From: a virus
UHGV virus genome: UHGV-0212520
Direction: 5' to 3' (one strand)
Length of the DNA stretch: 42,545 nucleotides
The translations under genes were made by a program, and so were the position numbers. Positions 13-42,498 of this stretch are shown here, one piece after another. The stretch's first letter is position 1, and each line of letters begins with the position of its first letter. The notes beneath the pieces are model-generated. The model saw nothing but the letters and a program-made list of their open reading frames with translations, did not search any database and had not been told where the DNA came from.

Positions 13-639
13 TTAGCGGCGGCGACGTTCACGGCGTGGTGCTTCATCTTCTTCGTCGTCCTCAAGGTCATTGACGCTTGCAGCGACTTTAGAACCCCCA
101 AACGCTTTACCTTCGCTAACGTATTTAATTGCCAGCAGGTTAACGCCGAGGACTTTGTATTTCTGGCTGAACCAAATTTCAACGCTTACGTTAGCGACGC
201 AGCCGCTGTAAACCTGTTCACCTTCAATCTGTTCACCGTCTACATTGAAGTCCTGCTCTACCTGAGTCTCGCCTTTTTTAGATGTTACAATCAGAGGCTG
301 CTTCTGTGCCTTCGCTTTGAAATAGAATCCTTCCGGGAAGTCTTCAAACGGATTGTCGCGCTCGGCGATGTCCTTAATCGCGCATTTATCCATGTGCTTA
401 CCCTCGCCGTAGTTGGACTTCATCCACTTCTCGGCAGCGGCAGCACCTAACGCTTCTTCGACTACAGCGTAAACGGTGTCGTATAGAGCATCGATTTGAG
501 CATGGTCGGACGGCAGGATAATCGTAGCGCTGTACTGCCCTTTAGTGATTGAGCCATCGTCGTTTTCACGGTCTTTTTCGCGTTCGAATACGTTAACCCA
601 TGCAGTGTTTACTTTACGCAGATTCAGTTTAATGCCCAT
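13..639 (-). CDS. Putative ssDNA-binding protein (DUF2815-like), acidic then basic C-terminal tail
   Basis: 208 aa ORF; N-terminal pattern KVNTAWVNVFERE resembles DUF2815 phage SSB-like proteins (from memory, unverified); C-terminus DLEDDEEDEAPRRERRRR; sits at the start of a minus-strand replication operon downstream of promoter 694-722. Confidence 0.45.
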   Translation of the reverse strand: MGIKLNLRKVNTAWVNVFEREKDRENDDGSITKGQYSATIILPSDHAQIDALYDTVYAVVEEALGAAAAEKWMKSNYGEGKHMDKCAIKDIAERDNPFEDFPEGFYFKAKAQKQPLIVTSKKGETQVEQDFNVDGEQIEGEQVYSGCVANVSVEIWFSQKYKVLGVNLLAIKYVSEGKAFGGSKVAASVNDLEDDEEDEAPRRERRRR

Positions 640-693: not shown

Positions 694-722
694 ACTATAA
701 TAGCTAACTATTCAGGTGTCAA
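694..722 (-). promoter_or_regulatory. sigma70-like promoter, family A copy 1 (TTGACA-N17-TATAGT on minus strand)
   Basis: Minus strand reads TTGACA (717-722), 17-nt spacer cctgaatagttagctat, TATAGT (694-699); near-identical blocks at 3855-3884 and 39831-39859. Confidence 0.55.
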
Positions 723-955
723 CCCTTCCAGCCAGTTATTTTCTCAACTATAGTTAGGTATATGTTAGGCCACTCTAAATTCCACACCCATTTAATTTCC
801 TTCGTCTGGCCCAGTTGCTCGGGGTCTACCGTTTCATACTTAATCGCAACGTAGACCACGAGTGGAAGAAGGATAATTAGAAGCGGCACTAACATAGCCC
901 AGTAAGCAACAAATGCCACAAACCCACCAAATACCCTGAACGTTTTACGAATCAT
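719..955 (-). CDS. Small membrane protein (one strong TM helix)
   Basis: ATG at 955 overlaps the stop of the upstream exonuclease gene (ATGA), with GAGGAGGA as RBS; hydrophobic stretch FGGFVAFVAYWAMLVPLLIILLPLVVYVAI. Confidence 0.45.
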   Translation of the reverse strand: MIRKTFRVFGGFVAFVAYWAMLVPLLIILLPLVVYVAIKYETVDPEQLGQTKEIKWVWNLEWPNIYLTIVEKITGWKG

Positions 956-2217
956 TCCAAATCCTCCTCTGTTACCTGATTCCACTCAGGACGTTTGTCG
1001 TCTGCCGTTGCCACACATGGCGCACCCGGCTTACGGGTAATAAAGTCTTTCAGTTCTTCTTCCGGCACAACTTTAACAGCTTCGGTCGGCGTCATGAGCA
1101 CTTGCTTCATTAGTGCTATACCATACTTGCCAGCCACTTTCTCCGCGTCTTTCCACGCACGATTACCTGGGCGACCTTCAACCAGTTTGTACCCCGGAAC
1201 TTTCTTACCGGAATGCAGTGCAGATGTCATCGCTTTCTCAACCTTGTCGATGTGCTGGCGCAACAATGGCAACTTCTCATACTCAGTTACGAGTTGCTCC
1301 GGCGTCAGTTCCAGCACAAAGTCGTCTTCAAGTTCTTCCACCAGCACCGCGTTAACCGTCTTTGTACGCGATGCGCACTGTTCAGAGAACCTACACCACT
1401 GACAGCCATCGACCGACGGCTTGAAGTCCGACGCTTTCAGGTTCTTCTTACCGCGGAAATAGGCATCAAGGGCTAACAGTGCTCGTTTCTGCGCAAACTT
1501 AGCGAACAGTTCCAGACCTTCAACTGAGATGTCCCACTCCGACGCACCACCCGCGTAGGGCTGGAAGATAACCAGACGAACTGTTGTTATGTTATAACGT
1601 CTCTTAAGTCTGCGATAAACGCCGAGAGCGTAAAGCATAAGCTGCTTGTTTTCTTTCGCTTCGACACGATGTCGTCCCGTTTTCAGGTCACCGATAATTA
1701 GCATGTGCTCGTCGGTGTTAGCCAGCTCCTGTACGGCAACGAGGTCAGCCGTTCCGAACGTCTGTAGTTCTTCTTGCCGTCCGCCAGGGCTATTGATGTA
1801 CCCCGGATGCAATACCTCAGTAAGATTGACGCGCATCTCGATCTTGGCGTAAGTGGCTACATCGATAATCGCTTTGCAGTAGTCAGTGTACTTGCGAACC
1901 TGCTCAATCATGTCTGCCGTAATCAGTACCGCGCCTTTCATCGGACTTATTAGCGCCTTAATCTGGCCTTTACCCTCATCCAGCACGTAAGCACCGACTT
2001 CGCGCTCTAACGGCAACGCGGTGCCTTTGATGTACTGGTTTAGGTGCATCTCAGCTATTGTGTGCATTGCCGTACCTAATACGGCGGCTTTACCGGACGT
2101 GTTAGGGATATCTTTTTCACAGGCCAGTGATGCGGCGCAACTTAGCCACTTTTTAGCGCCTGACGGCGACAGTAAGGCGTGCACATCATTATTGCCGCCG
2201 CGTTCTTTTAAAATCAT
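952..2217 (-). CDS. PD-(D/E)xK exonuclease, Cas4/RecB-nuclease-like with Fe-S cysteine cluster
   Basis: 421 aa; N-terminal Cys (LSCAASLAC) plus C-terminal C-x2-C-x5-C (CQWCRFSEQC) typical of Cas4/AddB-type nucleases; GDLKTG candidate active-site segment; RBS GGAGAG; ends in TEEDLE. Confidence 0.7.
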   Translation of the reverse strand: MILKERGGNNDVHALLSPSGAKKWLSCAASLACEKDIPNTSGKAAVLGTAMHTIAEMHLNQYIKGTALPLEREVGAYVLDEGKGQIKALISPMKGAVLITADMIEQVRKYTDYCKAIIDVATYAKIEMRVNLTEVLHPGYINSPGGRQEELQTFGTADLVAVQELANTDEHMLIIGDLKTGRHRVEAKENKQLMLYALGVYRRLKRRYNITTVRLVIFQPYAGGASEWDISVEGLELFAKFAQKRALLALDAYFRGKKNLKASDFKPSVDGCQWCRFSEQCASRTKTVNAVLVEELEDDFVLELTPEQLVTEYEKLPLLRQHIDKVEKAMTSALHSGKKVPGYKLVEGRPGNRAWKDAEKVAGKYGIALMKQVLMTPTEAVKVVPEEELKDFITRKPGAPCVATADDKRPEWNQVTEEDLE

Positions 2218-2561
2218 CGTAAACTCTCCAAATACAAGTTTAATGCTTGTAACTGTTCTTCTGTAGGAATGAAAGAATCATCACGATGCAAGTCACTTAA
2301 CTGTTGCAGCATTCCGGCGAACTGACGTCTTGCGTCAACAGATTCCATGTGATGTTTTTCACTTTTATATACTAGTGTTTTCGGGTAATCATCAAGCCTG
2401 CCAGACGATTTATTCACTCTGAGAACCCGAGCTTCGTGTGCAATGTGGATATACTTTCTCCCGTTTTGTAGCACAGTAGCTACGCCACTGTTCTTTCTGC
2501 GGTCGCCGACGGTGTAAACCTTGTCACCGCTGCGCAAATTAAGCCACCATTTATCCGTCAT
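2214..2561 (-). CDS. Hypothetical protein
   Basis: ORF in operon with ATGA overlaps on both sides; start moved to ATG 2561 (RBS GGGAGA) from the track's upstream alternative start. Confidence 0.5.
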   Translation of the reverse strand: MTDKWWLNLRSGDKVYTVGDRRKNSGVATVLQNGRKYIHIAHEARVLRVNKSSGRLDDYPKTLVYKSEKHHMESVDARRQFAGMLQQLSDLHRDDSFIPTEEQLQALNLYLESLR

Positions 2562-2830
2562 ACCCTGTTCTCCCACTGGTCAATTAAATGACGAGTCTTA
2601 TGTTCGCAATGCATAGCCCAGCCATACATCGACTCGAAGACATAAAAGTCAGGTTTGGCGAAAGTCGTGCGCTTAATCTGCGACACATGGCGGCCTATAT
2701 CTTTAGGCCGTGGTACTTTGCCTAAGTACGCCATCTCTTCCATCTGGTGCGAACCGGACGGCGCTCGCAACAGCCATAGAGCCTCTGTGTTATCCCGCCT
2801 GTCTACGGCGCGGTAGAGTTGGTAAATCAT
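2558..2830 (-). CDS. Hypothetical protein
   Basis: 90 aa ORF, ATG with RBS AGGAGA, translationally coupled to neighbours. Confidence 0.5.
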   Translation of the reverse strand: MIYQLYRAVDRRDNTEALWLLRAPSGSHQMEEMAYLGKVPRPKDIGRHVSQIKRTTFAKPDFYVFESMYGWAMHCEHKTRHLIDQWENRV

Positions 2831-3114
2831 TTCTTTGTCTCCTGCATTTTAAGGAAGACAATCATAGCGGCGCGGAGAGGGTTTTCGTGCGTACTTTTGG
2901 TGAACGATGCCGAGTGATACGCCCTATACGTAAACGTATGTCGGTTAACCGTAACGCATTCAATTGATATGTGATTATCAATTATTACAGGCCATGCATC
3001 AGATGGGTTGTTGCAGTAGTCTTTGGCCTTAAACGAATTCAATCCTGAAATTTGCATAACCTCTGCGTGCACACGGCAGTTAATTTCAAAATCGCTCATA
3101 GCTTCGTATTTCAT
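2827..3114 (-). CDS. Hypothetical protein
   Basis: 95 aa ORF in minus-strand operon, overlapping stop/start with downstream gene. Confidence 0.5.
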   Translation of the reverse strand: MKYEAMSDFEINCRVHAEVMQISGLNSFKAKDYCNNPSDAWPVIIDNHISIECVTVNRHTFTYRAYHSASFTKSTHENPLRAAMIVFLKMQETKK

Positions 3115-3129
3115 ATTTCCGACCCTCAG

Positions 3130-3152
3130 TTAAAGCGGCCCGAAGGCCGCGG
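3130..3152 (-). other. GC hairpin (gcggcc-cgaa-ggccgc) between genes; possible attenuator or processing site
   Basis: Perfect 6-bp stem with a 4-nt loop at about 3133-3148; only a weak T-tract downstream on the minus strand. Confidence 0.3.
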
Positions 3153-3157
3153 GATAA

Positions 3158-3658
3158 TTATTCTTCTTCGAAATACTTGTTCTTGATTGCCGTAAGGCGT
3201 TCCAAGTACTCAGCAAGGTCTTCGTCTTTAATCGCGGCAATCTTCATCTTCTTGCCAGTGAACTCTTCCAGCAGTTCGTCAGAATCGTCGCATGCGGCGT
3301 CGCTAGGACCTTCGTTAATCGCGTCGTCGATGGCCTGAATCTGGTCACGAAGAGACTGGTAATCGACTTCTTCTTTCACTTCTTCCGGTTCTGGCGTTGG
3401 TTCCTCTACTTTAGCTTTACGCGGCTTGCGTTTCGGCTTCTCTTCTTCTGTCGGTTTAGTGTCGACGATGTCTTCACCTTCGACTGGGATTTCTTTTGTT
3501 TCTTCTTCTGCACATTTGGCTACCGCTTCTTTGGTATACACTACCGTCTCTATTTCCAGAGGCTCGGCAACCTGAACAACTTGTTTTGCACTATTCGCAG
3601 CAATCAGTTCGTGTGCAACTACGAAACGTTCCAGTAATTTTAAAAATTGTTCTAACAT
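3158..3658 (-). CDS. Highly acidic protein with short basic patch (function unknown)
   Basis: 166 aa, very E/D-rich (net charge strongly negative by eye) with internal KPKRKPRKAK; RBS AGGAGA. Confidence 0.55.
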   Translation of the reverse strand: MLEQFLKLLERFVVAHELIAANSAKQVVQVAEPLEIETVVYTKEAVAKCAEEETKEIPVEGEDIVDTKPTEEEKPKRKPRKAKVEEPTPEPEEVKEEVDYQSLRDQIQAIDDAINEGPSDAACDDSDELLEEFTGKKMKIAAIKDEDLAEYLERLTAIKNKYFEEE

Positions 3659-3673
3659 TTGTTTCTCTCCTGT

Positions 3674-3823
3674 TTATTTATACTTAACGGTTTTAACTAA
3701 CTGGCCTGTTGCTTTGTCGAAGAAGCCAACGCGATTGTTGCTTACTCGATATCGTGCGGTTTCTTTAGTCCCAAATGCGATATCAAGGCCTAACAAAATC
3801 TTTGCTTTGCGATTATTGGACAT
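3674..3823 (-). CDS. Small hypothetical protein (49 aa), first gene after promoter A2
   Basis: ATG at 3823 with strong RBS GAGAGGAGAGAAAC; not in ORF track (<60 aa); translation MSNNRKAKILLGLDIAFGTKETARYRVSNNRVGFFDKATGQLVKTVKYK. Confidence 0.35.
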   Translation of the reverse strand: MSNNRKAKILLGLDIAFGTKETARYRVSNNRVGFFDKATGQLVKTVKYK

Positions 3824-3854
3824 TTGTTTCTCTCCTCTCGTTTGGTATGGGCTA

Positions 3855-3884
3855 ACTATAATAGCTAACTATTCATTGTGTCAA
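3855..3884 (-). promoter_or_regulatory. sigma70-like promoter, family A copy 2 (TTGACA-N18-TATAGT)
   Basis: Plus-strand block aactataatagctaactattcattgtgtcaa is near-identical to the 691-722 block; divergent from the HTH gene at 3949. Confidence 0.5.
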
Positions 3885-3948
3885 TGGGCTTTTCTAAAAT
3901 AATTAATATGGTACTATTCACATATCAACTGACTAAGGAGTAACTGAC

Positions 3949-4164
3949 ATGCAACCATCTGAACTAGGCATCCGTGTAGAACAACGCCGAAAAGAACTCG
4001 GCATCTCCCAGCGCCGTCTGGCTGTCCTGGCCGGTGTTTCCCAGGGCGCGATTAATCAGCTGGCTCTCGGTGTAACTCAGGACGTCCGCCCGGCAACGCT
4101 GTTTAAACTGGCGGAAGTGCTGCAAGTAGACGCCAAGTGGCTGGCGTTTGGTGAAGGGGCTTAA
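3949..4164 (+). CDS. XRE/Cro-like helix-turn-helix transcriptional regulator
   Basis: 71 aa; HTH signature LGISQRRLAVLAGVSQGAINQLALG; RBS AAGGAG 8 nt upstream; lone plus-strand gene embedded in minus-strand early region, convergent with primase-helicase. Confidence 0.7.
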   Translation: MQPSELGIRVEQRRKELGISQRRLAVLAGVSQGAINQLALGVTQDVRPATLFKLAEVLQVDAKWLAFGEGA

Positions 4165-4180
4165 CGCCCCTTTCTTTTTA
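4153..4180 (+). terminator. Intrinsic terminator overlapping the stop codon of the HTH gene
   Basis: ggggc-ttaac-gcccc hairpin followed by tttcttttt. Confidence 0.5.
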
Positions 4181-4181
4181 C

Positions 4182-6449
4182 CTATTCCAAATCCTCCTCT
4201 GTCACCACCAGCATTTCATTCGGTTCGTATATTGTCTTCGGTATTTTGTTGTCCGTTATCCGGGTGTTCAGCCTGTAACGGCCCGGTATTATCTGATTGT
4301 TTTCGTCTGTTCCAGGTACAAGATACCCGGCCTCAACCATTTTCTTAATCTTCCCGCGTTCTATGGCTTCTTTGGAGTTAAACGCCTTCGCGTTGGGGTC
4401 AGACTGTGCCAGCTTATTCGCTGCGGCCACCGTGATACCTTCGTTGCCGTTGTAGGTTCCTTCCGCCAGTTCAAACGCTGCCAGTATCGTGGCTTCTGAA
4501 CTGTTGACGGCGTTCTCTACGGTTTTACGTACATTTTCTTTACCTTCCTTTGTCAGCCCTTCTTCGCGCTCTTTCTCCTCGTCAGTCTTGAACGGCTCGA
4601 AGCCCCACGGCATCAGCACAAGCGCCTTGTGCGGCTCAGGCAGGTCGAGGTTTACTATTGTGCCGTATTCCTCTGTGTTACCCAGGAACTCAACTGCACG
4701 GTACTCTTTCGGTGGCGGCGCTTCACGGAACTGTACCGACTCCAGCACCATGCCAACTGTCTTCTGTTGCGGCCCGTGCTTAAATTTCGAGTGGTATACG
4801 TTTATCTGTCTGTCGGTAGCGCGTTCGATTGTCAGTTCCACGTCGACGCCCGCGTACAGCGCCCCACTACCGCGGGCTTTCTTTCCACCTTTAGGTGTGT
4901 GGTGGACAACGCCTACCGCAGCTTTAGTTGCATCACGCACTTCTTTCAGGATGGCGATAACTTTACCCATGCCGATTGCCGTTGATGAGCTGTTCTCGTC
5001 GAACTTATCAATCGTCAGAGCCAGGGTCTGGTTGAGGGTGTCGAACGCAACCATCCCAATCGGCTCGTCGCCAGCAGTTTCACGCATTATCTTAATCAGG
5101 CTTTTCAGTTTTCCGACTTCACCCATATCGATGACGTGTACATAATCTTTACCCTCAACGCCGTATTTAGCCGCGAGTGCATCGATACGTGTACGTGTGG
5201 CTGCGCCACCCTCGCCGTCGATATAGAAATGGTGGCAACGCTGGGTGTCAGCCCCCGCAAACCGGTATCCGGTGGCGCTGAGGTACATCATCCCCAGCGT
5301 ATAGAACGATTTGTACGTGCCAGATTCCCCGACGATATCCCAGATACAATCCGACGGCATGTACCCTTCTACGACGAAATCAGCCTTTACCGGGTCCGGC
5401 AGCTCGTCCTCCTCTGAGTCATCCTCGTCTTCCAGGTCGTCCAGGCTGCATGAAACAGATTCACGCGCGCCCCAGCCAATAGCCTCCGCGACTTCACTGA
5501 ACGGCAGACCAGTCGCATCGCACGCGTACTTCCACACCTCTTTCGGTGCCATGCCTTCGGTCGCCGTAATGTCGGTGTCGTGAATCATGGTTACGTTCGG
5601 CGCTTCGTAGCCTTCGCGCGGGAAGCACAGCAGGAAGTCGTCCGGGCGCGGTGTCGGGTCGCTGTAGTTCTCTGCATGTTCCGGTGTAGCTGGCATCTTC
5701 AGACCGCGGGGTGTCATGACGCCGCCGTACTCAAACGCCAGTGCCTCGAACGCGTCTGTAAACGCGGTGCGCAGTTCTTCCGGTATCTGGTAATCCGATG
5801 CGCTGCTCACCTCGTAATCCGGGGCGCCTTCCAGTAATTCGTCCGGGTCAATCAGGTCGTTGCGGCGCGACCAGATAACAGTAGAGCCTACCGGCGGCAG
5901 GTACATCGGTTGCGAAAGGGTGAAACCGCTGCGGTCGGCACCCATGCCTTTGAAGAAGTGCTCAAGCAAGCCATGACGAACACGGATGACGTCACCACCT
6001 TCGACTGGGCGGGCCAGCGGCATGACGACACGGAACCGCGGCGACTCATCGTTATGTGATGCCGTGGTGTAGAGGCACATAGCCCGTCGGCTGCGCTTAA
6101 CCAGGCACACCGCTTCCTGATACTCTTCCGGCGTTGCACTGTCGAAGTCAAGATACGCTAGTGACGATTTGCTTACAGACGCGTCACAGCGGTAAAAGAA
6201 GCCTTTACGCGCCCGCTTAAGGTCCCCGGTTTCCGGGTCTTTTACGGTGCTGTGCGTAGAGTCGCACGCAGCGGTGATATACCCCGGCGCGGTCTTAGGG
6301 TTAATCCCGCCACGGACAGCATCAAGCGGCTGGATTAACTCTTTCAGGTCGTCCAGTGTTGCTGTGTGTGTGGTTCTGACGTTTATATCCTTTTTCTCTG
6401 CCCGCGCGTTGCGACGAGACCACGAGTAGGATAAAATTACATCGGACAT
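4182..6449 (-). CDS. Putative replicative primase-helicase (C-terminal RecA-fold/RepA-like ATPase)
   Basis: 755 aa; C-terminal region GESGTYKSF ... VVHHTPKGGKKARGSGALYAGVDVELTIER resembles RepA/DnaB-like ATPase helicases; N-terminal domain unassigned; RBS GAAGGA; ends in TEEDLE. Confidence 0.6.
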   Translation of the reverse strand: MSDVILSYSWSRRNARAEKKDINVRTTHTATLDDLKELIQPLDAVRGGINPKTAPGYITAACDSTHSTVKDPETGDLKRARKGFFYRCDASVSKSSLAYLDFDSATPEEYQEAVCLVKRSRRAMCLYTTASHNDESPRFRVVMPLARPVEGGDVIRVRHGLLEHFFKGMGADRSGFTLSQPMYLPPVGSTVIWSRRNDLIDPDELLEGAPDYEVSSASDYQIPEELRTAFTDAFEALAFEYGGVMTPRGLKMPATPEHAENYSDPTPRPDDFLLCFPREGYEAPNVTMIHDTDITATEGMAPKEVWKYACDATGLPFSEVAEAIGWGARESVSCSLDDLEDEDDSEEDELPDPVKADFVVEGYMPSDCIWDIVGESGTYKSFYTLGMMYLSATGYRFAGADTQRCHHFYIDGEGGAATRTRIDALAAKYGVEGKDYVHVIDMGEVGKLKSLIKIMRETAGDEPIGMVAFDTLNQTLALTIDKFDENSSSTAIGMGKVIAILKEVRDATKAAVGVVHHTPKGGKKARGSGALYAGVDVELTIERATDRQINVYHSKFKHGPQQKTVGMVLESVQFREAPPPKEYRAVEFLGNTEEYGTIVNLDLPEPHKALVLMPWGFEPFKTDEEKEREEGLTKEGKENVRKTVENAVNSSEATILAAFELAEGTYNGNEGITVAAANKLAQSDPNAKAFNSKEAIERGKIKKMVEAGYLVPGTDENNQIIPGRYRLNTRITDNKIPKTIYEPNEMLVVTEEDLE

Positions 6450-6474
6450 GTTGTATTTCCTTCAGCAAGTAATT

Positions 6475-6502
6475 TGGCCCCGGCGCTCTAACGTCGGGGC
6501 TT
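6475..6502. other. GC hairpin gccccg-N-cggggc with T-tract on plus side
   Basis: Inverted repeat at about 6477-6500 followed by tttcttttatt on plus strand; lies between two minus-strand genes. Confidence 0.3.
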
Positions 6503-6506
6503 TCTT

Positions 6507-6740
6507 TTATTCCAGGTCTTCTAAAGTAGCGGTCATTCCGCGAACTTCTGCAACGGCACTATATTTCCCACCAACATTTTTCACGACACCGGACTTAACC
6601 AGCACCTTCAACGACCCTTCAATAATGGCGGAACTATAGTACTTAAAATAACTACGGCGCAAGTCGATAACGCTGCACGACCCTTTTTTACGTGTTAACG
6701 AAACTACTGCCGTGAATACCCGTGACTGGAACTCGGTCAT
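6507..6740 (-). CDS. Hypothetical protein ending in TATLEDLE
   Basis: 77 aa ORF; ATG overlaps the stop of the upstream AlpA-like gene (ATGA); C-terminal LEDLE tail resembles the EEDLE tails of exonuclease and primase-helicase. Confidence 0.5.
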   Translation of the reverse strand: MTEFQSRVFTAVVSLTRKKGSCSVIDLRRSYFKYYSSAIIEGSLKVLVKSGVVKNVGGKYSAVAEVRGMTATLEDLE

Positions 6741-6907
6741 TTTACATTCTCCTTAATCCACGCTTCCACTTTCTCCGGGTCAAACGTACCTGGTTGCCGG
6801 CGGCCCATAATGCGAATACAACAATCCGGGAACTTCCCACTCTTTAACCAGTTATTCAGCGTGCGACGAGTAACCCCGATACGCTCAGCTACCTCATTCT
6901 GTGTCAT
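6737..6907 (-). CDS. AlpA/Xis-like small HTH DNA-binding protein
   Basis: 56 aa; MTQNEVAERIGVTRRTLNNWLKSGKFP matches the AlpA-type HTH pattern; RBS AAGGAG; not in ORF track (<60 aa). Confidence 0.5.
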   Translation of the reverse strand: MTQNEVAERIGVTRRTLNNWLKSGKFPDCCIRIMGRRQPGTFDPEKVEAWIKENVK

Positions 6908-10346: not shown

Positions 10347-10783
10347 CTACTATCGCGTTTGACGGAAAGACAATGGCTTGTGACACCCGTGTTGTGTGCG
10401 GGAGTAACTGTTACAACACAGACACAAAGATATACGAGAATGATTTCGCTGTTATTGGGGTGGCTGGCGATGCAGGGGTAGGCACTATGCTTATCGATTG
10501 TCCGGGTATTCTTCGACCACAGCCCTACGACTTCGATTTCGAGGCCCTGGTGTTCGTGAAAGACACAGAAAAGGTGTATAAAGTCGCGTTTTATAAATCA
10601 TGGGATTGTGCACTTAGTTCGGTTATTCCAATTGCGGATAGCTTCGCCGCCGTGGGGTCTGGCTCGCCCTATGCGTTAGCCGCTATGGAATGTGGGTATT
10701 CGGCGCATGGTGGTGTAGCTGTTGCCTCGAAGTTCGACACTAACACCGGCGGCAAGATTATTACCAAACAACTATTAGGATAA
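10343..10783 (+). CDS. HslV/proteasome beta-subunit-like Ntn hydrolase (putative peptidase)
   Basis: 146 aa; MTTI N-terminus with Thr at position 2, VIGVAGDAG and AVGSGSPYALAAM segments align by eye with E. coli HslV (MTTIV..., VIAGFAGGTADA, IGSGGPYAQAAA). Confidence 0.5.
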   Translation: MTTIAFDGKTMACDTRVVCGSNCYNTDTKIYENDFAVIGVAGDAGVGTMLIDCPGILRPQPYDFDFEALVFVKDTEKVYKVAFYKSWDCALSSVIPIADSFAAVGSGSPYALAAMECGYSAHGGVAVASKFDTNTGGKIITKQLLG

Positions 10784-10842
10784 TTCCTACCCGTGGTATC
10801 CTCCAGTTACTGCATACTTAATACGCACCTGGAGGATTCATC

Positions 10843-11151
10843 TTGGATAAATTTACTGAAACAGTGACAGGGTGGCTTCTCGCCGCCGCACTAGCCGGAG
10901 GGGTCATCGGGCTACGACAACATAAGTCCGTTATTTCTGGCCCCATCGACGGGTTCTGCTTTATTGCAACTGGCTTCACCTGCGCCGTATTTGGCGCACC
11001 TCTCGCAGCTCAATGGTTCGGCATTACCGGCGAACGCGAAATAGCTGGCCTCGGATTTATCATCGCTGTTCTCTGGATGCCTATCTATTCCCGCCTCTCC
11101 GGTATCGTCGCCGGGGAATACATCTCACGTCGAGGAGGCCCGGATGAATGA
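10843..11151 (+). CDS. Putative holin (multi-TM small membrane protein)
   Basis: 102 aa with about three hydrophobic segments, immediately upstream of endolysin; start per ORF track (my base count around the start was off by one, so start uncertain). Confidence 0.45.
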   Translation: MDKFTETVTGWLLAAALAGGVIGLRQHKSVISGPIDGFCFIATGFTCAVFGAPLAAQWFGITGEREIAGLGFIIAVLWMPIYSRLSGIVAGEYISRRGGPDE

Positions 11152-19942: not shown

Positions 19943-20332
19943 ATGAATCTTAAAGCAACTGTCGTAGCGGGAGCGTGTTTCATCATCCTGGCCCACGCAC
20001 ACGGCGTCTACCAGTACCGCATCGGCTGGAACGAAGGCCGGGCGAATCTCGTTTCGCAGCAACAGCAGAAAGCACAGGCTGAGTTCGCGAAGAAAACACA
20101 ACGGCAGCAGCAGGATGAATCAAAGGCCGCAGCCGCTGACAACGAAGGTAAGACGAAATCAGAGGTGATTACCCGTGAAGTCGTTAAGTACATTAAAACG
20201 CCTGGTCGCAGCGTGTGCACTTTTGACCCTGAGCGCGTGCAGCTCAAGTCCCGCGCCGTCGTCAACGCCAATTCCATCCCCGGATACGATGATGATGCAG
20301 CCGCCGTGCAAACTGGCAGCGCCAAGCAGTGA
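19943..20332 (+). CDS. Rz: i-spanin (Rz-like)
   Basis: 129 aa; N-terminal TM segment, Q/E-rich coiled-coil middle, RBS AGGGGGA; lipoprotein gene in +1 frame within its 3' half. Confidence 0.65.
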   Translation: MNLKATVVAGACFIILAHAHGVYQYRIGWNEGRANLVSQQQQKAQAEFAKKTQRQQQDESKAAAADNEGKTKSEVITREVVKYIKTPGRSVCTFDPERVQLKSRAVVNANSIPGYDDDAAAVQTGSAKQ

Positions 20333-20438
20333 CGCGGACGAGGATTTAGCTATCGACGTTCAGAATGCTGAATGTGTACGGCAACTGCGTCTGAAAGTGT
20401 TCATGTTGCAGGATTACGTGAGGAATATTCTGGAATAG
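20175..20438 (+). CDS. Rz1: o-spanin (Rz1-like outer-membrane lipoprotein)
   Basis: GTG start with RBS GAGGTGA; lipobox LTLSAC then Pro-rich mature region; overlaps Rz in alternate frame and extends beyond it. Confidence 0.6.
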   Translation: MKSLSTLKRLVAACALLTLSACSSSPAPSSTPIPSPDTMMMQPPCKLAAPSSDADEDLAIDVQNAECVRQLRLKVFMLQDYVRNILE

Positions 20439-40317: not shown

Positions 40318-42498
40318 TTACTTAGCGTAGCGCTTCATCTCCGCACCTTCCGCTACAAGAGGGAATCCCTCGGCCCATTCCGGTAATTCGCACATCAATC
40401 GCTCTAGCTCTGCAACATTGTATTCCGGTAAATCTGGTGTCTCGCAGATAATCTCATCGTGAACATGAAGTACAATCGGGTAGCCGTTTGCTTCGACGTT
40501 CAGTAGGGCATTAGCCAGCAAATCACGGCACAACGCCTGGGTGCAGTTTTCCACCAGTTTACCGGAGTAGGTGTACTGGAAGCCCCACTGACGGGTTAAC
40601 TGGTTTTCTCCCTGGTACTTGATGCGCACGTTAGTAGACACCTTTCCATCTTCGTCTGTCTCTTTCGACACGCTTAATCCGACGCCCGGGTAAGACATAA
40701 CTCGGCCTGACGGCAACGTCATACGCAACCACCAACCTGCGACTTTGTTGCCGTTGTTGTCTGTTTCTACGTTACGCGAAAACTTAACCCCCCGCGGCCC
40801 TGCGGTGAACTCTTTACCCGGGTTGCGGATAGCCGCCATAGCCGCGTCTTCAATATCCCGCCAGAAAGCTACTGTTTCCGGGTGAGACTCGCGCCACATG
40901 CGCTTGATAGCGTCACATGTACGCCACACTTTCTTATCAAGAATATACGATGGTCGGTCATCCTTTTCACCGGGACGCGGGGGTCGCTTTGCTTCCTGAA
41001 TACGCGCCCACTCATAGCCTCGCGCGGTAGCGGCCCAGATGTGGTCGGGGAAAGTACCGTCCATCGTTTTAGCCATATCAACAAGGTCAAGGCCGAGGTT
41101 CTTGGCGAACTGTACGAATGCGCCGACACCGCCCGCGTAACCTAGGCCCAGTTCGCAGGCTTTACCAATCTGGCGTAAGTCTTTACGTTCTTTCTTGATG
41201 TAATCCGGCTCCATGCCAAACATCTTACCTGCGGTTACGCAGTAAATATCCAGCCCGGCGCGGAACGTATCGAGCGCGGTTTCTTCTCCCGCCAGCCATG
41301 CCAAACCGCGGCCTTCAACGTTAGAGTAATCGGCAACGACAAACTTATGTCCGACTTCGGGTATGATGCAGCTACGAACCGTCGATGCCGTTAGCTTGGC
41401 TACATCGAAACGCCGATGCGCGCGGCCCTTAAGTAACGCAGAAATGCCCTTATCCAGTTCATCATCGTGATAGTACCCGCGCGCCAGGTTCTGCGGCTGG
41501 AAGCCTTTACCCGCAAACCGTAACGTACGCTTGGCCCCACCGTACTGTATGCAACCGCGACGGCGGTCGTCTGACGAGCGGCCCAACAGCAGCGGGTTAT
41601 ATTTCGTTGACGCGGTGGACGCGGCCCCGAGGCGCATTTCGATAATCGTGCGGGCGTCGTCAGGTAAGTCGTCATCCGCCAGCAGGTCATTCAGCGTCGA
41701 CTTCTGAGCGTTGTGGATGCGGTGCGCGGGGGCGAGTTCACGCAAAATAGGAAGGAAATCATTTCCGGTAAGCGAGCCGCCGTATTTGCGTCGGGCTTCT
41801 TCCTGTAACTGCGCTTTGTGTTTTTCCACGGCTTCAATCGCAGCTTCCGCCAGCGCCACATCAACCTTAAACCCTCGGTCATTAATTAACTGATCCAGTT
41901 CCAGTACACGGTCCTCGAACTCTGAGTTACCCCAACGCGGCAGCTTATGGAAGACTTCACGCATCGCAGTGATGTCGCTCACGGCGTACTTGATGAACAG
42001 CGCCCACTCGTCCGGGTGCGTTTCCGCGGTGTAGCGTCTGATTTTGTAGTTCTTCGGTGTCGGTTTAGAAAAACGCTGAATCAGTGCCTTGCCGCGTTTG
42101 TCTTTCGCATTGTCCGCGGACACGCCCAGCACTTCGCACAGCGCATCAAGAGACCCCGGCAGCGCGTGACGAAACGCCCAAATCATTGTATCAATGGTGT
42201 TGCTTACGGGGATATCGAAGCCCCAGCAGTGTTTCATTATGAGCCTATCGAAAAGTCCACCGTTGTGCCATACCATCTTGATGCGGCTGTTGGGCTTAAC
42301 CAGGCGACGTAGTGCGCGATGCAAATCCCCCGGCATGTCGCTGCCGTCGGTGCAATCCCATACCTGTACAGGCTCGTCACCAAAAGCATAGGTACAGATT
42401 AGCACTTCGGTAGTTGGGTGTTCGGCGTAAGCATAGGAACCGACTTTCTTCAAATCGGCTTCGGAGAATGTTTCAAAGTCTAAGAACAGGTAACTCAT
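40318..42498 (-). CDS. Family A DNA polymerase with N-terminal 3'-5' exonuclease domain
   Basis: 726 aa; exo motif LFLDFETFS; pol motif A ADYSNVEGRGLAWLAGEE, motif B RKDLRQIGKACELGLGYAGG, motif C VLHVHDEIICE. Confidence 0.85.
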   Translation of the reverse strand: MSYLFLDFETFSEADLKKVGSYAYAEHPTTEVLICTYAFGDEPVQVWDCTDGSDMPGDLHRALRRLVKPNSRIKMVWHNGGLFDRLIMKHCWGFDIPVSNTIDTMIWAFRHALPGSLDALCEVLGVSADNAKDKRGKALIQRFSKPTPKNYKIRRYTAETHPDEWALFIKYAVSDITAMREVFHKLPRWGNSEFEDRVLELDQLINDRGFKVDVALAEAAIEAVEKHKAQLQEEARRKYGGSLTGNDFLPILRELAPAHRIHNAQKSTLNDLLADDDLPDDARTIIEMRLGAASTASTKYNPLLLGRSSDDRRRGCIQYGGAKRTLRFAGKGFQPQNLARGYYHDDELDKGISALLKGRAHRRFDVAKLTASTVRSCIIPEVGHKFVVADYSNVEGRGLAWLAGEETALDTFRAGLDIYCVTAGKMFGMEPDYIKKERKDLRQIGKACELGLGYAGGVGAFVQFAKNLGLDLVDMAKTMDGTFPDHIWAATARGYEWARIQEAKRPPRPGEKDDRPSYILDKKVWRTCDAIKRMWRESHPETVAFWRDIEDAAMAAIRNPGKEFTAGPRGVKFSRNVETDNNGNKVAGWWLRMTLPSGRVMSYPGVGLSVSKETDEDGKVSTNVRIKYQGENQLTRQWGFQYTYSGKLVENCTQALCRDLLANALLNVEANGYPIVLHVHDEIICETPDLPEYNVAELERLMCELPEWAEGFPLVAEGAEMKRYAK

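Follow-up and report, generated by a model that had tools for sequence, protein, structure and literature searches.

The SSB (single-stranded DNA-binding protein) of E. coli ends in a tip (DDDIPF), a short acidic-hydrophobic peptide that is carried on a disordered linker and organises genome-maintenance proteins. In phage T7, the acidic tails of the SSB gp2.5 and of the primase-helicase gp4 bind basic patches of the polymerase gp5, and the DTDF peptide of gp4 is observed on gp5 in PDB entry 6P7E (PMC12339929). The gp2.5 tail is also required for the stimulation of the T7 gp6 exonuclease by gp2.5 (PMC4124056). In crystals, the groove of an SSB is occupied by the tail of its neighbour, as seen for Enc34 ORF6, two other DUF2815 proteins, and T7 gp2.5 (PMC5686142), and RecE-like exonucleases pair with Gp2.5-like recombinases (Lopes et al. 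2010, PMC2896510). The DNA analysed here, UHGV virus genome UHGV-0212520 (the whole stretch of 42.5 kb, hereafter the window), corresponds approximately to the whole genome of a Kagunavirus (Guernseyvirinae), with a nucleotide identity of ~90% to the E. coli phages BEU35, M01, and GertrudWoker_Bas73. Several proteins encoded in its leftward early/replication region carry a short acidic motif with an Asp-Leu (D-L) core. With moderate confidence, we read it as a short linear motif that serves for docking, and as a variant, specific to the lineage, of the acidic docking tail of T7 gp4 and gp2.5. The copies of the motif in the window are the following:

955-975, minus strand: tail VTEEDLE of the exonuclease, whose gene ends in ...NQVTEEDLE before the stop codon
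4185-4205, minus strand: tail VTEEDLE of the primase-helicase, whose gene ends in ...LVVTEEDLE before the stop codon
6510-6530, minus strand: tail ATLEDLE of a 77-residue winged-helix protein (p77), whose gene ends in ...TATLEDLE before the stop codon
58-78, minus strand: internal copy SVNDLED of the SSB, directly after the OB fold, with an acidic run and then the basic end APRRERRRR after it
5415-5447, minus strand: internal copy SLDDLEDEDDS of the primase-helicase, in the acidic linker between its primase and helicase halves

A DL tail peptide is exemplified by PEWNQVTEEDLE, and the C-terminal segment of the SSB reads ...SVNDLEDDEEDE. The sequence-only reading had already noticed three proteins ending in EEDLE or LEDLE, with correct coordinates and C-termini, but its set of carriers was incomplete, the two internal copies having been overlooked. 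The similarity of the three tails exceeds chance: the expected number of protein triples sharing their last four residues is 1.4e-5 for ~72 genes, no such triple arose in 20,000 composition-matched simulations, and an [ED]-L-[ED] ending is found in these three only among the open reading frames (ORFs) of at least 30 residues (six frames, 1,461 ORFs called). The 19 nucleotides reported as common to the exonuclease and primase-helicase genes (ACAGAGGAGGATTTGGAAT) are indeed present in both, and the match extends to 22 of 23 positions, spanning V-T-E-E-D-L-E and the first base of the stop codon. The different codons claimed for the third gene are likewise found, the p77 tail being encoded by ACT TTA GAA GAC CTG GAA. 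A further internal match, SDADEDLA, occurs in an ORF at 20175-20438 (plus strand) that overlaps in part the 3' end of the i-spanin gene (19943-20332, plus strand) in another frame; this ORF, which has a signal peptide with the lipobox LSAC, is identified as an o-spanin lipoprotein, and its match is attributed to chance.

The motif lies outside, or between, the folded parts of its carriers. The SSB is assigned the gp2.5/T7-type OB fold (Pfam PF10991, Enc34_ssDNA-bd, E = 2.8e-16; PHROG 112, Gp2.5-like), with PDB matches to 4jg2 and 5odj. Its AlphaFold2 (AF2) model exhibits the OB fold up to residue ~180 with a predicted local distance difference test score (pLDDT) >90, followed by two segments with pLDDT <50 (residues 183-188 and 198-202), between which a short helix forms on VNDL (residues 189-192). 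The exonuclease returns PF10926 (DUF2800, E = 3e-66) and PF12705 (PDDEXK_1, E = 2.8e-9), and its residues D158, D177, K179, C272, C275, and C281 are invariant in 64 homologs. Since the DUF2800 profile ends at residue 410 out of 421, the exonuclease tail falls outside the domain. No solved structure of the exonuclease is detectable by sequence, and its fusion proteins (Rosetta-stone search, P0134 and others) contain no informative extra Pfam domain. AF2 models p77 as a three-helix winged-helix domain whose pLDDT is >90 up to residue 60 and drops to 60-68 in the tail; for this fold, Foldseek reports generic winged-helix hits only (MotA N-terminal, LexA N-terminal, and RPA32C; E ~1e-2). In the primase-helicase and the SSB, similar acidic motifs reside on disordered segments, and both are kept across the clade of related phages in which the motif takes the D-L form (hereafter the DL clade).

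The conservation of the tail in related phages was checked, and it is present in the homologs of the exonuclease, the primase-helicase, p77, and the SSB. The tail is carried by 79 exonuclease homologs in the clade loci, and D419 and L420 are invariant columns in 11 homologs of 40-57% identity; the search for close exonuclease homologs returned sequences >90% identical only, and divergence was read from representatives clustered at 50% identity and from the loci. Similarly, 77 primase-helicase homologs end in [DE]-D-L-x(0-2), some of them only 26% identical to the window protein; these latter, from 80 IMG/VR loci of the clade, end in ..ASDEDLNS, ..AADEDLE, or ..QEDDDLSD. The database search with p77 gave relatives >87% identical only, and the Jerseyvirus orthologs were taken from the loci. 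Tails differ from genus to genus around the constant D-L: Jerseyvirus has ..TTEGDLE (primase), ..ATPEDLE (p77), and ..VTEDDLEA (exonuclease), Cornellvirus ..SEEDDLEN (primase) and ..ATDSDLDD (exonuclease), and Dhillonvirus ..SATDDDLKD (primase) and ..EATDEDLSNE (exonuclease). Across tails, the Leu is followed by E, EA, SNE, KD, NS, or nothing (0-3 residues).

The internal copies are kept as well. In SSBs sharing 40-77% identity, D191 and L192 never vary, and of 104 database homologs, 103 possess the motif. The copy in the primase linker reads CSLDDLED or CTLEDLEE in Kagunavirus, CDEEDL[ADG]DEE in Jerseyvirus, and CTDEDLDDD in a metagenomic lineage (L064). The SSB tail of the DL clade as a whole is a polyampholyte, in which P-R-R-x-R-R-R comes after the DL motif and a stretch of acidic residues (13-105 in the window, minus strand), and this unit is repeated one to four times in relatives (loci L003, L004, and L064-L091), e.g. 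..DEDDEEEERPRRKRRSYEDDEE; other DUF2815 SSBs have purely acidic-hydrophobic tail ends.

The tail pattern is specific to few families. In 92 related sequences, it was found in 199 of 10,177 ORFs of at least 50 residues, and 181 of these 199 are homologs of the exonuclease, the primase-helicase, or p77, counting among the latter a 91-residue winged-helix variant ending in ..SRDLE. Some of the other 18 are different small proteins, such as a 62-residue protein between the SSB and PolA (family A DNA polymerase) genes ending in ..TATDEDLE and a 70-residue protein ending in ..KKEDLE. The former belongs to a protein of 62-67 residues in loci L064-L071 (~12393-12581 in L065), the stop of which overlaps the PolA start. 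No similarity is detectable between this protein and p77, and it has apparently acquired the tail independently. Kagunavirus primase-helicases are mosaic: in loci L018, L027, L030, and L041-L043 the window protein finds its best BLASTP match at just 26-33% identity, and the protein of Bas72 (PQ850621.1) aligns to it over residues 354-755 only. Mosaic Kagunavirus primases with swapped N-terminal halves nevertheless retain the C-terminal ..NEML[TV]VTEEDLE. As judged from these homologs, the D-L motif is shown to be under protein-level selection and modular.

The sequence-only reading had argued for selection at the protein level from the codons of p77, and this view is borne out by distant homologs, down to 26-45% identity, where the D-L core persists and many codons change synonymously (ACA/ACC/ACT/ACG; GAG/GAA; TTG/TTA/CTG/CTC/CTT) while the peptide remains constant. 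The opposite possibility is that the peptide has no function and is a by-product of the nucleotide sequence, a ribosome-binding site GAGGAGGA having been copied from the exonuclease to the primase gene by gene conversion. The exonuclease stop indeed overlaps the ATG of a 78-residue ORF (GAATGA), and GAGGAGGA, located inside the exonuclease tail 7-8 nucleotides upstream of that ATG, is a possible Shine-Dalgarno sequence for this ORF. Moreover, the 19-nucleotide identity is improbable by codon chance (~0.0016 for identical TEEDLE codons, given the codon usage of the window), and, in Kagunavirus as well as Jerseyvirus, the tails of exonuclease and primase have in common the minor Asp-Leu codons GAT-TTR, versus GAC-CTK in the p77 gene. 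However, no gene follows the primase stop, which is succeeded by a hairpin and a convergent gene, and the p77 stop is likewise followed by a hairpin and no gene. In 16 related loci, the exonuclease tail is AGT GAA GAA GAT TTR GAA (SEEDLE), retained without GAGGAGG, and the exonuclease gene of the Jerseyvirus wast (...VTEDDLEA) has a stop without an overlapping gene. Jerseyvirus, Cornellvirus, and Dhillonvirus retain the peptide with different codons and downstream contexts, and four protein families preserve the motif even where identity has dropped to 26-40%. The chance that the peptide is such a by-product is thus close to negligible, and a ribosome-binding site as the sole explanation is contradicted by the relatives, where the peptide is kept in places devoid of any GAGGAGGA-type context. 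As a secondary point, the shared minor codons suggest a common origin of the tail-coding segments of exonuclease and primase, or their homogenisation by gene conversion.

A wider comparison covered ~170 loci with the module formed by a DUF2800 exonuclease, a DUF2815 SSB, and PolA. Most of 150 DUF2800 representatives (50% identity clusters) exhibit a conserved ..DKRPA.. segment and a short linker, followed by [DE][DE]-Phi-[DE][DE]. The nearest clade has x-D-L-x, and distant clades have DDFEDL, often with a terminal ..DL[VIA]. Within single genomes, the exonuclease tail resembles that of the neighbouring SSB, and the motif differs by lineage. In the Staphylococcus phage phi2958PVL, the exonuclease has SAEDDFDKL, the SSB SAAEDDFDEL..DEDFL, and the primase ..LEDLI; a Paenibacillus phage has LEQEFAN in the exonuclease and LEDEFAD in the SSB; and in Bacteroides, the SSB has ..YYDDLA and the primase ..YEDDLM. 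Vibrio, Rhodobacter, and Liberibacter phages show a similar within-genome match. In an environmental clade (80 loci), the exonuclease and SSB tails are both bipartite, DDF[DE]D[VIL] plus a terminal ..DL[VAI] (for example ..DDFEDVT..EDLV in the exonuclease and ..DEFDDI..DDLV in the SSB), and their end residues agree within the genome (DLV, DLA, DMI, DIL, or DLI). The Chi-like phages Seifer (Klebsiella; L005) and SPN19 (Salmonella; L172) have tails of the W/D-D-E-V type, carried at the C-terminus by the exonuclease, the SSB, the primase, the SNF2 helicase, and a protein of 130-135 residues. The small terminase of SPN19 also ends in the tail of its lineage (..GDEVDDDEV; 10354-10923), a hint that packaging and the replication hub are connected.

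The match between cognate tails was quantified by permutation, the tests ignoring shared ancestry and consequently showing lineage-wise co-variation and not independent events. For 57 non-redundant loci, the exonuclease-SSB local score is 25.8 for cognate and 21.8 for non-cognate pairs (0 of 20,000 permutations), and the score of the last four residues is 3.9 versus 1.3 (1 of 20,000). The exonuclease-primase score in the DL clade is 10.5 versus 8.1 (0 of 20,000). The tail was never found on PolA or on the VRR-NUC nuclease in any lineage examined, and the C-termini of PolA read ...[RK]Y[AR]K(D) throughout the loci examined.

These data bear on a first alternative, in which each tail is an acidic DNA mimic acting in cis: it would fold back on the DNA-binding surface of its own protein, for autoinhibition or gating, and the shared sequence would reflect similar physical requirements and no common partner. 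Such behaviour is known for the tails of gp2.5, gp32, and E. coli SSB, the SSB tails of the DUF2815 family sit in DNA-binding grooves, and every carrier of the strongly acidic tails binds or processes DNA. However, a specific, invariant D-L with Ser/Thr preferred three residues upstream is more than generic DNA mimicry would require. It also leaves unexplained why the tails of unrelated folds match within a genome and differ between lineages, and why the exact local motif appears on non-homologous small proteins. We therefore hold it rather unlikely.

The same comparison helps to decide whether the receptor is of host origin. The known hosts of the DL clade are all enterobacteria, and it is through short motifs that many phage proteins recruit replication factors of the host. 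Host partners would include the SSB, Pol III, the beta clamp, or DnaK. However, phages of the same host genus display different motifs, WDDEV in the Salmonella Chivirus SPN19 and DL in a Salmonella Jerseyvirus. This makes a phage-encoded receptor more likely than a host-encoded one. In addition, the motif follows the SSB tail of the phage itself in hosts from Staphylococcus to Bacteroides, and the phage supplies its own polymerase, SSB, primase-helicase, and SNF2 helicase. The beta clamp was considered by name: its binding consensus is QL[SD]LF (or QLxLxL), which neither VTEEDLE nor ATLEDLE fits, and no clamp gene is found among the annotated genes of the close relative Bas73. A host receptor is an unlikely explanation, and the receptor is, from these tail sequences, probably encoded by the phage.

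Returning to the docking reading, the core [S/T]-x-[D/E]-D-L with acidic or polar residues after it, placed on flexible segments, would be the Guernseyvirinae/Dhillonvirus form of the acidic-plus-hydrophobic tail of T7-type SSBs. It would be borne by at least four proteins, namely the exonuclease, the primase-helicase (at its C-terminus and in its interdomain linker), the winged-helix protein, and the SSB after its OB fold. Proteins that copy the SSB motif may bind wherever the SSB tail is recognised, at one site or several, and the carriers would be tethered to, or compete at, a common phage-encoded hub serving the replication fork and processed DNA ends. Two receptors can be envisaged. PolA, by analogy with T7 gp5, is the first candidate because it is always present and never tagged, and the second lies on the SSB, whose concave beta-sheet groove is seen to accommodate SSB tails in trans in crystal structures. 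We infer both the binding to a partner and its identity (PolA and/or the SSB groove) by analogy with these systems. The sequence-only reading had proposed T7-like docking, and this remains the best explanation, backed by the co-variation with the cognate SSB tail and by the motif in the SSB itself; what does not carry over is the C-terminal aromatic rule of T7. The motif presents a Leu and not a terminal Phe, is followed by 0-3 residues, and has internal copies, so recognition need not depend on a C-terminal carboxylate.

The position of the motif also bears on whether it is a C-terminal degron through which a host AAA+ protease, or a phage HslV-like peptidase, would degrade early replication proteins in a timed manner. 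It stands at the extreme C-terminus of three early proteins, and an HslV-family peptidase gene is annotated in Bas73. However, the conserved internal copies in the SSB and primase linker and the variable residues after D-L do not suit a degron, and homologous tails are general in T7-type SSBs, where they are interaction modules. Known C-terminal degrons are non-polar, such as ssrA (...LAA), in contrast with the acidic DL motif, and an ssrA-like degron was discarded on these grounds. Overall, proteolytic targeting is very unlikely.

Several points weigh against the docking reading. Shared ancestry was left uncorrected, so the co-variation is partly lineage signal. The primase of the environmental clade usually has no tail, which implies that the set of tail-bearing proteins is lineage-specific. 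There is no C-terminal aromatic residue, which is essential in T7 and in bacterial SSB tips, and the recognition mode may therefore differ. Unlike in T7, the DL-clade SSB does not end in the shared motif but in a basic run (PRRERRRR). Lastly, PolA is too divergent for the basic patch of T7 gp5 to be mapped on it: gp5 is absent from the sequence-detectable PDB relatives of the window PolA, of which only ~100 residues align to Pol I enzymes.

Set beside the T7 gp4/gp2.5 tails, the window likewise combines a gp2.5-type SSB and a primase-helicase having a common acidic-hydrophobic motif on disordered segments with a polymerase that itself has no tail, and a tethering of replisome parts is presumed in both. 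Besides the aromatic residue and the basic SSB end, the two differ in the number of carriers, to which the window adds the Cas4-like exonuclease, the winged-helix protein, and, in the primase linker, a further copy; as to polymerase binding, it is established in T7, whereas here we only infer it. The window SSB belongs to the same family as the DUF2815/T7-type SSBs with a tail-in-groove arrangement (Enc34 ORF6, 5odj; B. cereus, 4jg2; T7 gp2.5), and a similar motif starts its tail. In those crystals the contacts are between SSBs, whereas in the window the motif also occurs on other proteins, for which the SSB groove would, by analogy, be a general docking site. The E. coli SSB hub is built the other way round, with one tip-bearing SSB and many partners possessing pockets, whereas here the partner enzymes carry the motif; it also differs in sequence and in its requirement for the terminal Phe carboxylate. 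Clamp-binding and PIP motifs offer a comparable logic, in which several enzymes use one short motif for one receptor, allowing hand-off and competition. However, the window encodes no sliding clamp and its motif is unrelated to QL[SD]LF. Finally, the DUF2800 exonuclease is encoded beside a gp2.5-like SSB/annealase, as in the exonuclease-annealase pairs lambda Exo-Red beta and RecE-RecT. Such pairs need cognate contacts, and the cognate tail matching fits this need. In lambda, the exonuclease contacts a folded C-terminal domain of the annealase, whereas the window exonuclease appears to mimic the own tail of the SSB.

The genes of the motif carriers and their surroundings are arranged as follows:

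13-639, minus strand: gp2.5-like/DUF2815 SSB (Pfam PF10991, PHROG 112)
719-955, minus strand: ORF encoding a predicted membrane protein of 78 residues
952-2217, minus strand: DUF2800/PD-(D/E)XK Cas4-like exonuclease
between the exonuclease gene and the next entry, minus strand: several small ORFs
3158-3658, minus strand: acidic protein of 166 residues (phrog_3127, no Pfam match)
3949-4164, plus strand: cI-like helix-turn-helix (HTH) gene, convergent
4182-6449, minus strand: primase-helicase, with an AAA_25 helicase core at residues 356-522
6507-6740, minus strand: p77, the 77-residue winged-helix protein (phrog_5169)
6737-6907, minus strand: HTH/excisionase-like gene
40318-42498, minus strand: PolA

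A repeat of 24 nucleotides, CTAACTATAATAGCTAACTATTCA, occurs at 691-714 and 3852-3875 with 0 and 2 mismatches, respectively, where none is expected by chance. Both repeats coincide with the two best minus-strand sigma-70-like promoters (TTGACA-N17/18-TATAGT), one upstream of the SSB gene and the other upstream of the operon whose last gene encodes the exonuclease. G+C-rich hairpins at 4153-4173 and 6476-6501 directly follow the stops of the primase-helicase and p77 genes, with T-runs on the plus strand; the former also terminates the convergent cI-like gene, and no plus-strand gene reads into the latter. The acidic 166-residue protein has a conserved C-terminal tail of its own, K-Y-[FY]-[ED]-x-[EQ]-[ED] at the very end, which is NKYFEEE in the window. 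Its relatives (31-93% identity), labelled "13.88 kDa late protein", end, for instance, in GKYYEVEE, EEFYDAE, or KYYELED, and a Dhillonvirus protein of 240 residues ends in ETYFELED. This tail may be a second docking tail, aromatic in kind.

The docking principle itself is already known from T7. What appears to be new is the set of carriers, i.e. a Cas4-like exonuclease that mimics the SSB tail, a winged-helix protein, and the copy in the primase-helicase linker. Apparently also new are the use of a Leu-based motif that is not strictly terminal and its lineage-private matching across a very widespread module. In the open-access literature, no description was found of shared tails in this module or of an exonuclease mimicking the SSB tail. 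It is conceivable, though we regard it as doubtful, that a general "SSB-tail mimicry" code operates across the whole module, in phages as different as those of Staphylococcus and Bacteroides, the Chi-like phages, and the Guernseyvirinae, each lineage copying its own motif onto the proteins that work at the fork or at DNA ends, among them the exonuclease, the primase, the SNF2 helicase, small winged-helix proteins, and, in Chi-like phages, the small terminase as well; the polyampholyte SSB tail of the DL clade could then itself be a receptor or a condensate-like hub for DL-tagged proteins. If true, this code would amount to a programmable, lineage-private addressing system for phage replisomes, and would act on mosaic gene exchange either as a barrier or as a ticket.

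The docking reading gives a testable handle on the assembly of a common and unstudied replication module made of an exonuclease, an SSB, PolA, and a primase-helicase, which tblastn detects in >1,500 sequenced phages. A peptide of six to seven residues would predict membership of the replisome, including for proteins of unknown function such as the winged-helix p77, and the way in which tails match lineage by lineage suggests a rule on which replication genes mosaic phages can exchange. The T7 paradigm would thereby be extended to motifs without a terminal aromatic residue or a strict C-terminal position, and to an exonuclease that can bear a copy of the SSB tail.

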